Below, piece by piece: positions 21,911 through 27,781 of a DNA stretch of 64,000 nt; position 1 is the first letter of the stretch; each line of letters opens with the position of its first letter. The notes below the pieces were generated by a model. The model had not been told where the DNA came from, made no database searches, and saw nothing but the letters and a program-made list of their open reading frames with translations. The translations under genes were made by a program, and so were the position numbers. This DNA comes from a bacterium UBP13_UBA5359 (lineage in GTDB: Bacteria; UBP13; UBA5359): the NCBI GenBank assembly GCA_002410925.1, contig DHPR01000012.1:270643-334642 (forward strand), in the 5' to 3' direction.

Positions 21911-22498
21911 TTAGCTGCTTTCAATATCTCTATAAGATGGAGATGTTTTTCTGCAAATCACACACATCTCTTCTTTTCCGGCGTGTAACGCTCCACAACA
22001 GTTACATTTTACCCAGCCATGATCACGTCTTATCCTTTGGCGACAAAGTTCATGCTCTAGAAATCTGCCGAATGATTCGGCCACCAATCTATCTTCTATA
22101 ACGGCACTTATTTCCTGTGCCGTTTGCCTTTCTTTCTCCTCCGGATCCGAATATTTTATGGGCGGAGAATTCTCACTCTCCTTATAAAGAGCTCCCGCTC
22201 TAAACCGTATATCTGTGATCAGAGCAAAGCCTATTCTCTCATTAAGGCGCTTTCTTATTTCCTCTTTTTGCAGGGATAATTCCTGCGCCCAGGTAGATCC
22301 GTTTGTGTTTACCGTCATTATACCTGAAATGACCCTTTGTGGCGAAGTATTTCTGCTTACTCCTTTGCCTACAACTTCCTCCCAGACAAATAAAATCAAT
22401 TCCTCTCTCAATCTTCGCTTATCCTTAAGATTTCCCAAAAGACGAGAGATGACTTTTTCAACGGATATAAATCCGCTTCTACTCATTTGTTCCCTCAA
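21911..22498 (-). CDS. DUF721/DciA-like protein with C-terminal Zn ribbon
   Basis: WEEVVG...TWAQEL...RLN KH-like signature; position after recF; CNCC...CVIC tail. Confidence 0.8.
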   Translation of the reverse strand: MREQMSRSGFISVEKVISRLLGNLKDKRRLREELILFVWEEVVGKGVSRNTSPQRVISGIMTVNTNGSTWAQELSLQKEEIRKRLNERIGFALITDIRFRAGALYKESENSPPIKYSDPEEKERQTAQEISAVIEDRLVAESFGRFLEHELCRQRIRRDHGWVKCNCCGALHAGKEEMCVICRKTSPSYRDIESS

Positions 22499-23619
22499 GC
22501 AACATTAAAGATATTTCCCTCTTCCACTCTGTAAATTGCCGCTGTTGTTGATGCTATAAAAGGAATAAATTTTTCCTCTGCCGTAGTTATAAATGTCTGT
22601 ATTCCCTCTTTTGATATCTCTCTTATAAGATATTCTTTTCTCTGATCATCCAATTCGGATAAAACATCATCAAGCAAGAGAACCGGCCATTCTCTCACCT
22701 TTCTTTTCACCATATCCATAGCCGCTAATTTGAAGGCGAGCACTGCTGTACGCTGTTCTCCCTGTGACCCATATATATGGACATCTCTATTTCCTAAAAA
22801 TATTCTTACATCATCTCTATGCGGCCCTACTAACGTTGTTTTGTAAATATCCTCTCTCTTTGCCTCCTGTCTGATCAAATCACCGTAGGCAAGAGATATA
22901 TCCGTTTCACTCAATTCTTCATCCTTACCCACTCTTTCCAATACCCTGTTAACATACGTTATCCTAAATCTGTCATCCCGTTCCGTCAAGAGGCGATGCC
23001 TTTCTGCTGCTAGAATGGATATCTCTTCAAGATATTGCTTGCGTCTTTTTATAATCCGGCTGCCCAAAGTTACCAATTGCTCGCCCCAGACATCCGTTTC
23101 TTCAGAGAAGGCCCCTTTTCTTTTAATCAATATGTTTCTGTTTCTGAGAATCCTGTTATACTGCTGCAGATGATGGCAATGCACTCTGCTTATTTGAGAT
23201 ATCTCTCTGTTTAAAACTATCCTCCTTTCCCCCGGTCCTCCCTTTATCATCTTAAGGTCCTCAGGAATGAAACAGACAGCATTTATCTCTCCTATAAGAT
23301 CAATACACCTTCCTTTATTAGCATTGATTTTAACGTCCTTGCTTTTATCTCTGGCTACAGCTAAAGAAATCTCTATATCACCACGCTCTTCCCTATCTAA
23401 CACAGCTTCCAAAAAAGCGCAGGCTTCCCCTCTTCTTATCATTTCCTGATCTCTCGCCGTTCTGGGAGATTTTGTCGCCGCCGTTACGTATATCGCTTCC
23501 AACAAGTTGCTCTTTCCCTGACCGTTTTTACCGAAAAGAACATTAAGTCCATAGGACGGAGCAAAATCCAGGCGCTGATAGTTTCTGAAATTTACAAGCC
23601 TTATACTCTTCAGATACAA
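22495..23619 (-). CDS. recF: DNA replication/repair protein RecF
   Basis: NFRNY, GKNGQGKSN, GPHRDD, GSQGEQR, LLLDDVLSELD. Confidence 0.97.
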   Translation of the reverse strand: MYLKSIRLVNFRNYQRLDFAPSYGLNVLFGKNGQGKSNLLEAIYVTAATKSPRTARDQEMIRRGEACAFLEAVLDREERGDIEISLAVARDKSKDVKINANKGRCIDLIGEINAVCFIPEDLKMIKGGPGERRIVLNREISQISRVHCHHLQQYNRILRNRNILIKRKGAFSEETDVWGEQLVTLGSRIIKRRKQYLEEISILAAERHRLLTERDDRFRITYVNRVLERVGKDEELSETDISLAYGDLIRQEAKREDIYKTTLVGPHRDDVRIFLGNRDVHIYGSQGEQRTAVLAFKLAAMDMVKRKVREWPVLLLDDVLSELDDQRKEYLIREISKEGIQTFITTAEEKFIPFIASTTAAIYRVEEGNIFNVA

Positions 23620-23623
23620 TATT

Positions 23624-24730
23624 TCATCCTATCTTTACCGGCATAACTACATATGTATACTCTTCTTCTCCCATGGGTCTTATAATAGCCGGACTTAACG
23701 AAGTTCCGCTTTTTATTTGCAACATCTCTTCATCAAGATTACCGAGAATATCCAGCAGGTATTTGGCATTAAAAGCTATATCCTCATCTTCACCGTTATA
23801 CTGCGCACTTATCTCCTCATAAACATCGCCAACATCCTGTGTTCCCGCCGTAACGGCTATTCTTTCTGCCGAAAAACTCATTTTTACTACATGAGAGCCT
23901 TCTTTAGCAAGAATATGCGCCCCCTTGACAGCTTTGCTTATCTCTTCTCTGGAAACAATACTTTCATAAGGAAGATTGGCGGGTATGACCTGCCTGTAAT
24001 TAGGATATTTACCCTCTATAATTCTGGAAACCAAGACTATTTTATTATAAATAAAGGCAACCTGATTGGAGAGAACTCTTATCATAACCTCTCCTTCCCC
24101 TGAAGAAAGAAGGCGGCTTAGCTCATTAAGCGTTCTTCCCGGAATAATCAGGGAAGTCTCTTCTTGAGAAGGTTCGGATAAAGAGAGGTTGCGTAACGCC
24201 AGTCTATGTCCGTCGGTAGCTACAAGCTTGAGATTGCTTCCTTCTACCTCCAGCAAAACGCCGGTCAGTATGCGCCTGCTCTCATCCTGAGAGGAAGCAA
24301 ATATAACCTGCCTGATGGCCTGTTGCAGTATATCTGCGGAAACGGCGCATATATTCCCTTTTTCAAACTCGGGGAAAAGGGGATATTCCGAAGCGGGAAG
24401 TGTCCTTATGCTATATTTTGATCTTCCTTGCTTTATCAGAAGCTCATGTTCTTTTTCCTGATAAAGATCTATCTCTTTGCCGGGAAGGTTGGAGATTATA
24501 TCATAAAGAAGTTTAGCCGGCACAGAAAGACTCCCGCTATCTTCTACCTGTGCTTCTACAGAGGTCTTTAATCCTATCTCCAAATCCGTTCCGGTAAAAG
24601 AAAGACGACCTTCCTCAAATTCTATCAGCGTATTTCCTAAAATGGGCTGTGTGCTTCTGTTAGATACTGCCCTCATTACGGATTGTAATGCAGCTGCTAG
24701 ACAGCTCTTCTCCACTTTACTTTTCAACAC
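23624..24730 (-). CDS. dnaN: DNA polymerase III beta clamp
   Basis: GTDLE, VATDGHRL, GKYPNY, FNAKYL, VVMPV. Confidence 0.97.
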   Translation of the reverse strand: MLKSKVEKSCLAAALQSVMRAVSNRSTQPILGNTLIEFEEGRLSFTGTDLEIGLKTSVEAQVEDSGSLSVPAKLLYDIISNLPGKEIDLYQEKEHELLIKQGRSKYSIRTLPASEYPLFPEFEKGNICAVSADILQQAIRQVIFASSQDESRRILTGVLLEVEGSNLKLVATDGHRLALRNLSLSEPSQEETSLIIPGRTLNELSRLLSSGEGEVMIRVLSNQVAFIYNKIVLVSRIIEGKYPNYRQVIPANLPYESIVSREEISKAVKGAHILAKEGSHVVKMSFSAERIAVTAGTQDVGDVYEEISAQYNGEDEDIAFNAKYLLDILGNLDEEMLQIKSGTSLSPAIIRPMGEEEYTYVVMPVKIG

Positions 24731-24984
24731 TTTACCTCCCCCTACGTAGTACTAGTTTAATAATATACTTTATTAGTAGTAATAGTAGTAGTTACCTTGA
24801 TATTGTTGATATGCTTTCTCTGCGGGCTTGTCACGCTTCTTTCAGCTGTGGGCGTTTTGTTGAAAACACCGTTGATGGATTATGCCTTTATGCTTCTTCG
24901 TCCACAGCTTTTTAGAAGGCCTCTATTATCCCAGCATTACTCACATATTTATCCACAGCCCGGGCTATGAGAAAATTGATATTT
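24731..24984. other. oriC (dnaA-dnaN intergenic unwinding region)
   Basis: Perfect DnaA box TTATCCACA 24949-24957; degenerate boxes 24937-24945, 24898-24906, 24858-24866, 24804-24812; DnaA-trios TAG TAG TAA TAG TAG TAG 24774-24791; AT-rich tract toward dnaN. Confidence 0.9.
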
Positions 24985-26349
24985 TTAATTTCTCATTCTT
25001 TCGGCCAATGCTTTCAATACTTTATTCAGATTCTCGTCAACCAGGCTTAATCTCTTTATTTGGTTGCAGGCATGTATTACGGTAGAATGATCCTTCCCTC
25101 CAAACTGATTACCTATATCCGGCAAGGAAGCTTCCGTCATCTCTCGACATAAGAACATAGCTATCTGCCTTGGAAAGACAATAGCGCGGGTTCTTTTGGA
25201 GGATTTCATATCTGCTATCTTTATATTGAAATGGTCTGCTACAGCCTTTTGTATATTCTGTATGGTCACCTCTTTCGGTCTGTTTTTAGGAAGGATATCT
25301 TTAAGCACTTCAGCTGCTCTTTCTATCGTGATCGGAGTATTGGTTAACGAAGAAAAGGCAGTTATTCTTATAAGTGCACCTTCCAGTTCTCGAATATTAT
25401 TGGAGATGTTGGTAGCTATAAACTCGATAACGGCATCAGGAATATCCAAATTATCCTTGTTTGCCTTTTTTTGCAAAATAGCTATTCTCGTTTCAAGATC
25501 CGGTGGCTGAATATCTATTGTTAATCCCCATTTAAGTCTTGACCGCAATCGTTCATCTGTAAGATGTAGTTCACTTGGAGGACGATCGCTGGTTATAACT
25601 ATCTGTTTGTTTGTTTCATGAAGGGTATTAAAAGTATGGAAGAATTCCTCCTGTGTTCTATCTTTGCCGGCAATGAATTGAATATCATCGACCAACCATA
25701 TATCCACATTTCTATATCTGCTTCTAAACTCTGTCGTTCGTTCCTCTCGGATGGAGGTGATGACATCGTTGGTAAACTTCTCTGCAGAAACATATATCAC
25801 ATGAGAATCATTTTTATCATTATTAATATAATTCCCTATGGCGTGCATAAGATGTGTCTTTCCCAGACCTACTCCTCCGTAAATAAAGAGAGGGTTATAC
25901 ATAGTTGCCGGAGATTTGGCTACTGCCAGCGAGGCTGCCTGGGCAAAGCGATTGCTAGTGCCGACAACAAAAGTATCGAAGTTATATTTAGGATTAATGG
26001 GAATAAATGAAAAATCATCTCTCTCCATGCTTTCAGATGCTCTTCGCGAGCCCTTTTTTTTGGCTCTTTCTGCTACCGTCGGTAGCTCCTCCTCTTCTGT
26101 GACGACGAATTTTAATTTAACATCACTATTGCAAATAGCTTTAAGAGTATCTTCAATCGATCGTGAAGATCTCTTCTCTATCCAGTCTTTAGCAAAATCG
26201 CTGGATACTCCCACAGTAAAAATATCATCCTTAAAGGAGATAGGAGAAATAGTTTTAAGCCAGGTTTCGAACCCTGCCTTGCTTGTTTTTGTTTTAAGCA
26301 GAATAAGGGCTTTATTCCAAATCTCCGTATGAGGGGCATTCTTAGGCAT
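24985..26349 (-). CDS. dnaA: Chromosomal replication initiator DnaA
   Basis: YNPLFIYGGVGLGKTHL, DDIQF, QEEFFHTFN, RELEGA, GGKDHSTV. Confidence 0.99.
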   Translation of the reverse strand: MPKNAPHTEIWNKALILLKTKTSKAGFETWLKTISPISFKDDIFTVGVSSDFAKDWIEKRSSRSIEDTLKAICNSDVKLKFVVTEEEELPTVAERAKKKGSRRASESMERDDFSFIPINPKYNFDTFVVGTSNRFAQAASLAVAKSPATMYNPLFIYGGVGLGKTHLMHAIGNYINNDKNDSHVIYVSAEKFTNDVITSIREERTTEFRSRYRNVDIWLVDDIQFIAGKDRTQEEFFHTFNTLHETNKQIVITSDRPPSELHLTDERLRSRLKWGLTIDIQPPDLETRIAILQKKANKDNLDIPDAVIEFIATNISNNIRELEGALIRITAFSSLTNTPITIERAAEVLKDILPKNRPKEVTIQNIQKAVADHFNIKIADMKSSKRTRAIVFPRQIAMFLCREMTEASLPDIGNQFGGKDHSTVIHACNQIKRLSLVDENLNKVLKALAERMRN

Positions 26350-26388
26350 AGTCTAATAAAACCTCCAGTAATAATTAGGTATAAATAA

Positions 26389-27204
26389 TTATTTCAAAAT
26401 GAGATCAATCTGCATCAAACCCTCCTCTGTTAGAGATCTCTTACCATTCTCATCACAACGCAAAAGATCTATTTTCTCCAAATAAGCCATATCTCTATGC
26501 GCCGTGCTAAGGCTTATATTGAGTTCCTTAGCTACGATGCTCGGGCCTGCAAGACTCAATTCCATAATCAAGAGAAGCACTCTTTTTTGGCGATCTGTAA
26601 GTGAAGGCAACGGTTTTCTTTTTTTTCTGCTCTCTTCTTTTTGCTCTCCACCGGTATCCCGGGGAGAAGCAGCTCCTAAAGATAGAGTTATAACGGTTCC
26701 TTGAGACAGATTATCCTCTATAGTTATGGCACCGCCTATGTAGCTCAGAGCCTCTTTAACAATGGGCAATCCTGAGCCAACACCTTTTATATACTCCTTA
26801 ATCTGGGCATTTGCTGTGGAAAAACCTGGTAGAAAGGCTTTTTCCTTGTTCTTTATTCCTGGGCCTCGGTCAGAGATTCTAATCGTATTACCGTCATCCA
26901 AGACCGTTATAATGGCATCTCGAAAATAAGCATGTATAAGGTTTTCCACTAACTCTTTAATTATAATATAAGGAAGTTTTCCTCCCTTGCTCTGAGAGGC
27001 TTCATAAGTCTTTGTCGCTAGTAAATGTATAAATTCCAGGCAGTTGCTACTGCTAAGCTCTATTACACGTGGCGAGGTTGTAGGAGAATCATATACTGCC
27101 AGGCGAACGCTAGATTCCTTTTCCAGTAAAGGTTGGGCATTTTTATAAAAGGGATGGGAAAGGTTTCCCTCCTTTGCCATAACTTTTCGAGGATACTTCC
27201 GCAT
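26389..27204 (-). CDS. GHKL (HATPase_c) ATPase fused to a C-terminal winged HTH; function unknown
   Basis: N box ELVENLIHA, G1 DRGPGI, F box FLPGFST, G2 GVGSGL, GTVITL; wHTH LTDRQ...VAKELNISLSTAHRDMAYLE; no HisKA segment visible; start could be 27180. Confidence 0.85.
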   Translation of the reverse strand: MRKYPRKVMAKEGNLSHPFYKNAQPLLEKESSVRLAVYDSPTTSPRVIELSSSNCLEFIHLLATKTYEASQSKGGKLPYIIIKELVENLIHAYFRDAIITVLDDGNTIRISDRGPGIKNKEKAFLPGFSTANAQIKEYIKGVGSGLPIVKEALSYIGGAITIEDNLSQGTVITLSLGAASPRDTGGEQKEESRKKRKPLPSLTDRQKRVLLLIMELSLAGPSIVAKELNISLSTAHRDMAYLEKIDLLRCDENGKRSLTEEGLMQIDLILK

Positions 27205-27334
27205 TTTTCAACACCGCATAATACTTTATCTCAACAATAATACATATTCTATGAACAGAAGCGGAATCCTGCCTTTCCAACTTTCTTTCAGGCTTTCCAG
27301 AAGGCATACCAATCAACGAAATATACCGGAAAGC

Positions 27335-27528
27335 TGTGGACAAAAAGAGAGGCAGGAATAGAGGGGAAAGGCTCGGTCTTAAAATATTTTCACCCGGCAA
27401 AGCCCCTTCCTGCGCAGCATAAAGGCCGCTTGTTCTGCTGGTAAGGCAAAGTCAATAGGATCTTTTCCACAAAACTATCCACAGATGTTGATAACTTTTG
27501 ATTGTTTGATAATGATAACAGAGGATAA
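27335..27528. promoter_or_regulatory. Second DnaA-box cluster
   Basis: One-mismatch boxes TGTGGACAA 27335-27343, TTTTCCACA 27463-27471, CTATCCACA 27475-27483, TGTTGATAA 27486-27494; weaker AGAGGATAA 27520-27528. Confidence 0.8.
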
Positions 27529-27646
27529 GCCCTTTTTCAATTAGCAATGATTATCATCAAATATCATCATTGGTAGTTTTGTTTGCTTGCTGTGGCATAG
27601 TGCCTGTGATATAATCCACCTATAATTTTGTAAGGATGAAAAAGAG

Positions 27647-27781
27647 ATGAAAAGGACTTATCAGCCAAAGGTAAGAAGAAGAAAAAGAGTTCACGGCTTT
27701 CTTTCCAGGATGAGCACTCCCGGAGGAAGGGGAGTTATCAGAGCCCGAAGAGCCAAAGGCAGAAAGGTTCTGTCCGCCTAG
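27647..27781 (+). CDS. rpmH: 50S ribosomal protein L34
   Basis: Translated by hand (absent from the ORF track): [44 protein letters not shown], 44 aa. Confidence 0.98.

Follow-up and report, generated by a model that had tools for sequence, protein, structure and literature searches.

What does a gene whose product joins an ATP-binding module to a winged helix-turn-helix (wHTH) do directly in front of dnaA? This question is raised by an open reading frame (ORF) of 271 amino acids (aa) at positions 26389 to 27204, minus strand, in a 64-kb stretch of DNA from a bacterium of the candidate phylum UBP13 (UBP13_UBA5359; contig DHPR01000012.1, positions 270,643 to 334,642; the whole stretch is here referred to as the window). 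The control of DnaA is a central question of the bacterial cell cycle, and the accessory regulators known so far are each confined to certain lineages and were found in a few model organisms. An initial annotation of the window, made from the sequence alone, had proposed that the gene is co-expressed with dnaA and that its product regulates replication initiation. Judged by the comparisons made in this study, the predicted protein is a strong candidate for a so far unknown regulator of chromosome replication, and it probably has a function that involves DnaA or the origin. A search of the full-text literature (supplements and subscription journals lie outside its coverage) returned nothing on the family of the 271-aa protein, and the available parts of PMC4255298 and PMC13270200 hold nothing on it.

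Linkage of the gene to dnaA and probable joint inheritance

The link to dnaA was assessed in several locus sets, which partly overlap. All six species loci taken from genome contigs contain rpmH, the gene, dnaA, dnaN, and recF. A metagenome search gave at least 561 loci, and among the best 80, which were examined (44-59% identity), dnaA lies directly downstream and on the same strand in 76 (72 detected by tblastn, 4 by a DnaA profile); in the other four, at most 106 bp of DNA remain past the gene. In a further genome set, dnaA follows the gene in 72 of 73 genomes, i.e., within the locus in 67 (E 1e-128 to 1e-34, long forms of the protein included) and across the numbering origin in 5 chromosomes that are numbered from dnaA, where the gene is the last and dnaA the first; the locus of the remaining genome (L118) stops 232 bp past the match. 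Coordinates from two independent searches placed the gene next to dnaA in 53/53 positive genomes sampled, and among more than 150 loci there was none in which a family member lay apart from dnaA. Conserved adjacency to dnaA had been chosen beforehand as the refutation test of the proposal, and it held without a counter-example in both genome and metagenome loci.

The two genes are also close. The gap from the stop codon of the gene to the start codon of dnaA was measured in 125 dereplicated loci with an alignable DnaA N-terminus (long forms without such an alignment were excluded), and its median is 20 bp: the genes overlap in 9 loci (by 4 bp in L099, for example), and the gap is 0-20 bp in 54, 21-60 bp in 48, 61-100 bp in 11, and more than 100 bp in 3 loci, two of which contain broken genes. 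In the window, the corresponding parts of the locus are as follows:

26389..27204, minus strand: gene for the ATP-binding module and winged helix; ATG start, 271 aa, stop codon at 26389-26391
26350..26388, minus strand: spacer of 39 bp between the gene and dnaA; GGAGG at 26362-26366, no terminator-like site
24985..26349, minus strand: dnaA, 454 aa (Pfam Bac_DnaA, 1e-72)
21911..24730, minus strand: remainder of the operon, namely, dnaN (23624-24730), recF (22495-23619), and a DciA-domain gene (21911-22498)
27647..27781, plus strand: rpmH, the divergent neighbor, first of rpmH-rnpA-yidD-yidC-jag-mnmE-mnmG

These coordinates agree with the initial description of an ORF between rpmH and dnaA, on the dnaA strand and 39 bp before dnaA. 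The GGAGG ribosome site, 12 nt 5' of the dnaA ATG, is kept in two sister species. A terminator scan detected nothing in the 39-bp gap, as had been expected from the sequence; its three terminator-like hits all lie inside coding sequence, and this number shows no excess over expectation (3 versus 2.4). Within the genus, the ratio of nonsynonymous to synonymous substitutions (dN/dS) of the 271-aa gene is 0.04-0.11, and that of dnaA is 0.07; because of this ratio, the ORF is a real gene under purifying selection. Taken together, the gaps, the overlaps, and a single conserved promoter-like site upstream (see below) indicate that the gene is probably the first of the dnaA operon and co-expressed with dnaA, as the initial annotation had suspected.

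Two loci of the Coriobacteriia type (L161 and L162) are informative on what exactly is conserved, since an inversion has moved dnaN-recF to the opposite side and strand and the pair of the gene and dnaA has stayed intact. The survival of the pair in these loci argues that it is the pair itself that is selected, and not just the neighborhood. The order there is recF and dnaN on one strand, followed on the other strand by the gene, dnaA, and rpmH, so that rpmH lies downstream of dnaA in the same direction.

It may be asked whether the arrangement is a frozen accident, in which a gene with a role unrelated to replication rides on the dnaA promoter or on origin-proximal dosage. The region from rpmH to recF is among the most syntenic in bacteria, and passive conservation of neighbors is conceivable there. 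As a control, 40 genomes of the same phylum that do not carry the gene were assessed. In 35 of them rpmH abuts dnaA directly, which also bears out the earlier statement that the two are usually directly divergent; the median spacer is 423 bp, and a profile search for a cryptic homologue upstream of dnaA gave no match at E<=10 in any of the 40. The slot is therefore not otherwise occupied, and together with the absence of members elsewhere, the retention of the pair after inversion, the tight coupling, and a conservation like that of DnaA, this makes a frozen accident highly improbable.

Regarding distribution, 1646 relatives of the protein were retrieved at E<=1e-3. A profile search of 1.84 billion representatives gave 387 clusters at E<=1e-30 and 589 at E<=1e-10, well apart from the generic HATPase_c tail of 21,116 at E<=1e-3. 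The gene is present in 3 of 398 genomes of a broad sample outside the window's genus and in all three species of the window's phylum, which in the species collection searched comprises three species of one genus. In an evenly drawn set of Actinomycetota it was found in 146/401 genomes (the denominator includes seven unpublished genomes, all negative), and in a further phylum in 79/94 genomes, or 53 of the 54 high-quality ones (77/92 and 51/52 without the unpublished genomes G819 and G827). Five of the 15 negatives of that phylum were checked: three have no assembled dnaA, in one a contig end truncates dnaA, and in the fifth (G859), the only high-quality negative, the contig starts with the gene's last 66 residues, directly before dnaA; no true gene loss was seen among these five. 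Identical public proteins occur in Rubrobacter radiotolerans, R. tropicus, Adlercreutzia, Collinsella, Miltoncostaea marina, and Geothermincolales, always under the names 'ATP-binding protein' or 'histidine kinase', and Armatimonadota- and Aquicultor-type names are also found among the relatives. The Adlercreutzia and Collinsella proteins are members of the family, in line with the statement in the initial annotation that similar ATP-binding proteins lie beside dnaA in Coriobacteriia. NCBIfam contains no model specific to this family.

The median identity to the window's copy in 148 loci outside the genus is 50% for the protein, 47% for DnaA, and 33-35% for DnaN, RecF, RnpA, and YidC. In trees of the protein and of DnaA (66 rows, quick search), three phylum groups are separated with the minimum of 2 changes in both, and the patristic distances correlate (r=0.51), with 0/999 permutations reaching as high a value. 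This fits an old vertical co-inheritance of the gene and dnaA; the trees alone do not show co-evolution. One genome of the same phylum without the gene (G408, locus L172) has a DnaA very close to that of carriers (E 2e-211), and upstream of its dnaA a DtxR-like regulator, secE, and nusG are found instead of rpmH; this rearranged origin region may be the trace of a loss event.

The last gene of the window's operon, which encodes the DciA-domain protein (Pfam DciA, 2e-18), overlaps recF by 4 bp, with an identical gene order in many related loci, and the protein ends in a Cys-rich C-terminal tail (CNCC...CVIC). Rfam gave 0 matches at the gathering threshold across the window.

An ATP-binding module joined to a winged helix

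The initial annotation had described a Bergerat-fold ATPase followed by a charged linker and a wHTH. Alignments and structure models divide the protein accordingly:

26671..27123, minus strand: Bergerat-fold ATP-binding module, residues 28-178
26614..26670, minus strand: charged linker, residues 179-197
26392..26613, minus strand: MarR/TrmB-like wHTH, residues 198-271, recognition helix at about residues 231-244

The predicted layout starts with a disordered segment (residues 1-27), a beta-hairpin (31-52), and a helix (55-72), followed by the N-box helix (79-91) and the Bergerat fold up to residue 178; the roughly 50 residues before the N-box helix thus form a hairpin and one helix. The models agree on this layout, with a predicted local distance difference test (pLDDT) score of 76.5 for the full-length protein and, for the module folded alone, a pLDDT of 84.4 and a predicted template modeling score (pTM) of 0.81. 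Pfam HATPase_c matches residues 79-176 (E 4.8e-13, 50 bits versus a cut-off of 26.4) and all 33 members of a family alignment. The module contains an N box (E84/N88/H91), a G1 box (D112-G116), a lid (117-140), and a G2 box (G141-G145). In the 33-member alignment, E84, E87, and N88 (ELVEN), D112, G114, P115, and G116 (DRGPG), and G141-G145 (GVGSG) are invariant, and with the exception of E87 these columns do not vary in a 48-member alignment either, in which the most divergent forms are represented. Y38 of the N-terminal hairpin and E84, at position N-4, are invariant as well. The boxes had been called complete in the initial annotation, and this stands for ELVEN, DRGPG, and GVGSG; in the FST box, T130 does not vary, F128 hardly does, and S129 is not among the conserved columns of the 33-member alignment. 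H91, inside the N box, is the only conserved His in both alignments, and the 271-aa protein has no HisKA or DHp match, nor is there one in the list of 25 families matched by the 33 members, in agreement with the reported lack of a visible His-phosphoacceptor domain. From the Pfam register and general knowledge of the fold, N88 would be the Mg-binding Asn, and H91 would occupy the position of the N-box Lys of kinases.

By sequence, the module is classed with the catalytic CA domains of histidine kinases: matches to solved CA domains range from 2e-7 to 5e-5, and G1, G2, and G3 align with those of WalK, KinB, and HK853. The fold is that of the kinase CA domains (HATPase_c PF02518; WalK 3sl2, KinB 3d36, HK853 3dge, CpxA 4biu, ThkA 3a0t), and the N, G1, F-region, G2, and G3 motifs come in the same order. 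In contrast to histidine kinases, the protein has no DHp/HisKA, acceptor His, sensor, or membrane part; no response regulator is encoded nearby, and rpmH and dnaA flank the gene in the loci examined. It also differs from kinase CA domains by the lead-in of an N-terminal beta-hairpin plus helix and by the C-terminal wHTH fused to it.

In a structure search independent of Foldseek, the closest among the 50 entries listed for the module was DIP2311 of Corynebacterium diphtheriae (3lmm, a structural-genomics entry of unknown function; Z 12.7 and a root-mean-square deviation (rmsd) of 3.1 over 153 residues; Z 14.2 in a second comparison), followed by histidine-kinase CA domains (Z about 9-10 over 105-122 residues) and SpoIIAB (Z 9.7 over 128 residues). 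Among solved proteins, DIP2311 alone has a winged helix after this module (Foldseek alignment across both modules, 277 columns, E 1e-6). Identity to it is only 14-15%, and DIP2311 carries about 225 residues before the module, whereas the protein described here has a disordered stretch of no more than about 27 residues there. Within the list of 25 families, no Pfam model of a DIP2311-type ATPase matched a member at E<=0.01, and DIP2311-like_C matched 1/33. The first domain of DIP2311 is one that we take to be 'AlbA_2/Schlafen-like', and we know of no link of DIP2311 to dnaA.

Other GHKL proteins were compared as well. The GHL ATPases (MutL, GyrB, Hsp90, MORC) possess an S5-fold transducer, which carries a catalytic Lys. 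This transducer is absent here, since only the linker and the 74-residue wHTH follow residue 178. The sequence match to MutL is confined to residues 78-136 and reaches no better than E 0.002, and the 50 structure entries listed include no GHL-type ATPase. In SpoIIAB, RsbW, and UsfX, a HisKA-less GHKL module of about 140 residues stands alone and acts as an ATP-dependent kinase and partner-switching binder. A second explanation follows from them, namely, that the protein is a SpoIIAB/RsbW-like kinase or partner switch that targets DnaA (or itself), phosphorylating or sequestering DnaA according to ATP/ADP, and uses its winged helix for protein contacts instead of DNA binding. The module is HisKA-less and of SpoIIAB size, has the same beta-helix-helix lead-in to the N box, and resembles SpoIIAB (1l0o, Z 9.7) and UsfX (8ih8, Z 7.5) in structure; E84 and Y38 are invariant. 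A precedent for a kinase-fold regulator of DnaA is CcrZ, as described in the available part of PMC8387234. On the other side, the match to the SpoIIAB model TIGR01925 is weak (E 4e-4, 20.3 bits, far below the cut-off of 135), kinase CA domains and DIP2311 match as well as or better than SpoIIAB, no STAS or sigma genes are found in the flanks (rpmH-rnpA-yidD-yidC-jag and dnaA-dnaN-recF), and the fused wHTH, which SpoIIAB does not have, superposes on DNA-bound MarR proteins. A SpoIIAB-like role is thus considered quite unlikely.

Residues 179-195 of the linker are predicted to be disordered (pLDDT <50), and the winged helix mostly exceeds a pLDDT of 90. It superposes on MarR-type wHTHs with Z 12-14 and an rmsd of about 0.9-2 A over 69-75 residues, the matches including the DNA-bound structures of MarR (5h3r), Rv2887 (5hso), and CggR (8r3g). 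Among the 33 members, the wHTH is matched by the Pfam models HVO_A0261_N (25/33), TrmB (20/33), and HTH_IclR (20/33), and the window's own wHTH remains below the Pfam cut-offs (HTH_11, 14.8 versus 25). Although its 74 residues superpose on MarR/TrmB factors, the protein has no dimerization helices on the two sides of the wHTH, and an ATPase module takes the place of a ligand pocket as its effector part. In the 33-member alignment, the recognition helix hardly varies across three phyla.

Members of the Coriobacteriia type (L156-L159 and L161-L166) keep both modules and have a Pro/Gln/Tyr-rich low-complexity linker of 100-250 residues between them, and in L143 a stretch of this kind is found at the N-terminus instead. 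No extra Pfam domains were detected in 15 long representatives or in two long homologues, and the N-terminal extensions match no Pfam domain. Two apparent fusions were rejected: P0340 (HATPase_c plus Bac_DnaA) is a gene call through frameshifts, its in-frame pieces being split by Arg/Pro-rich out-of-frame text, and the 676-aa open frame of L099 is a high-GC artefact.

DnaA boxes and putative regulatory DNA around the gene

The intergenic DNA on either side of the gene and dnaA contains the following features:

27205..27646, no strand: spacer between rpmH and the gene, with a promoter-like site, DnaA-box-like sites, and a conserved leader block
27540..27512, minus strand: promoter-like site TTGAAA-17-TATCAT (10/12), conserved in the genus (three species)
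27335-27343, 27463-27471, 27475-27483, and 27486-27494: DnaA-box-like sites, conserved in the genus
24731..24984, no strand: spacer between dnaA and dnaN, likely the unwinding half of a two-part oriC

DnaA-box-like sites are more numerous in the window than expected (36 versus 13), and those at 27463-27494 follow the conserved -10 directly. Of 118 dereplicated upstream spacers, 110 contain one or more TT[ATG]TCCACA boxes, and since these spacers hold DnaA boxes, the gene sits between a DnaA-box cluster and dnaA. On the other side, the dnaA-dnaN spacer contains a run TAG TAG TAA TAG TAG TAG (24774-24791), which is DnaA-trio-like, with two tandem TCAACA-type boxes (24795-24812) adjoining it, as well as the window's only perfect TTATCCACA (24949-24957) and a TGTTGAAAA at about 24858. 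The DnaA-trio consensus is given as 3'-GAT-5' next to DnaA boxes in the available part of PMC6669920. Because the dnaA-dnaN spacer matches this arrangement, the locus looks like a two-part origin that encloses the gene and dnaA.

Such a position would suit a third explanation, in which the protein is an origin organizer or tether that bridges DnaA-box clusters, or serves segregation or compaction, by ATP-driven dimerization and leaves DnaA itself unregulated. It is in keeping with this that the gene and dnaA lie between the two DnaA-box regions, and that GHKL ATPases of the MutL/MORC type clamp DNA via ATP-dependent dimerization. The module described above is, however, of the kinase/DIP2311 type rather than GHL and comes without an S5-fold transducer, and a role independent of DnaA would leave it unexplained why the pair survived the inversion of dnaN-recF. 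An organizer of this kind is very unlikely.

Variant boxes of the form TT[AT]TCAACA (in the window, e.g., 27486-27494), which were considered as a possible target of the winged helix, are specifically enriched, with A at position 6 in 32 and 29 of the 118 spacers versus 0-5 for G or T. They are situated in DnaA-box arrays, usually head-to-tail with canonical boxes (tgtggataaTGTTGATAAc). Where the gene is absent, TCAACA-type and canonical boxes stand at 3:27, versus 75:305 in genomes with it, and the GC content differs as well (0.62 versus 0.51). The variants are read here as DnaA boxes and not as such an operator, perhaps as a low-affinity class typical of these lineages.

The leader by the start codon of the gene (27205-27290) is almost fully conserved in the three species despite a dS of up to 3.2. 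No clear Shine-Dalgarno sequence precedes the ATG, which a TGTTGAAAA box adjoins directly. This leader could be an operator or a translational control element.

It is in this DNA that a fourth explanation has to be weighed, according to which the protein is purely a transcription factor, i.e., an ATP/ADP-sensing autoregulator of the dnaA operon (or a regulator of other genes) that never acts on the DnaA protein or on unwinding. Its C-terminal domain is a typical MarR/TrmB-type wHTH, regulators often lead the operon that they control, and the leader block is conserved throughout the genus although dS reaches 3.2. After masking of the DnaA boxes, however, no cross-lineage motif was found in the 118 upstream spacers, yet the recognition helix is near-invariant, and a universal target fits this better than an operator that differs between lineages. 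Overlaps and gaps of 0-20 bp in 63/125 loci furthermore suggest coupled amounts, which are commoner between partners than with a regulator of low copy number; this is no more than suggestive. A pure transcription factor is unlikely, but it is the main alternative to the role proposed below. GCAGGAT(TC), which was considered as a shared operator, was rejected: one subclade has it within box arrays, at about -600, and the genus of the window has it at -68.

Proposed role and its meaning

The protein is probably a soluble, single-copy, two-module protein that is co-produced with DnaA. In the role proposed here, the winged helix would anchor the protein on DNA in the origin or dnaA-promoter region, and the kinase-type module would serve there as an ATP-dependent switch or phosphotransferase that alters the assembly or action of DnaA. 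Initiation, dnaA expression, or both would thereby be tied to the nucleotide state of the cell, and since both proteins would be co-translated, the amounts of the gene product and of DnaA would stay coupled. This reading, i.e., a DNA-anchored protein whose ATP module switches or phosphorylates and thus modulates DnaA or dnaA expression, is the likeliest of those considered, and its chances are put slightly below even.

The presumed role, initiation control via DnaA or oriC, would be that of YabA, SirA, Soj, Hda, DiaA/HobA, and CcrZ, to which the protein has no relation in fold or sequence, and to our knowledge none of these is encoded first in a dnaA operon. PMC5295017 and PMC5835720 are reviews on this subject. 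Among these regulators, the CcrZ mentioned above is an example of a kinase-fold protein that can modulate DnaA.

Several points weigh against the proposed role. The genomes are related to each other, and the locus counts therefore overstate the number of independent cases. The protein has evolved somewhat faster than DnaA, with mean pairwise tree distances of 3.77 and 2.90, respectively. Kinase-type CA domains normally have a DHp helix to act on, and the protein has none; within the predicted fold, the ATP lid has the lowest confidence. The recognition helix of the Coriobacteriia-type members differs, which weakens the case for a single universal DNA target, and the upstream spacers hold no shared operator. 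Finally, none of the forms examined is genuinely fused to DnaA or another domain. A complex prediction of DnaA with the protein, each given as an alignment, scored 0.01 against a mark of 0.32, which gives no verdict either way.

A stronger version of the proposed role would make the protein an obligate co-initiator, namely, a kinase or ATP switch that is tethered to the origin, serves DnaA only, gates the assembly of DnaA filaments at a two-part oriC, and has been passed on vertically together with dnaA since before at least three phyla split. This version is unlikely. If it is true, initiation needs a second nucleotide-sensing component that model organisms do not have, and this would concern Rubrobacteria, Coriobacteriia, Thermoleophilia, Armatimonadota-type lineages, and the candidate phylum of the window.

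The gene is about as conserved as dnaA and, by its gaps and overlaps, appears translationally coupled to it in whole classes and phyla. Its carriers include the human-gut Coriobacteriia Collinsella and Adlercreutzia and the radiation-resistant Rubrobacter, and since cultured carriers exist, the hypothesis is directly testable. If the protein does regulate initiation, it would represent a new class of regulators, in which a kinase-type ATP module is placed on a DNA anchor, and it would open a way to study replication control in Terrabacteria that have received little attention.

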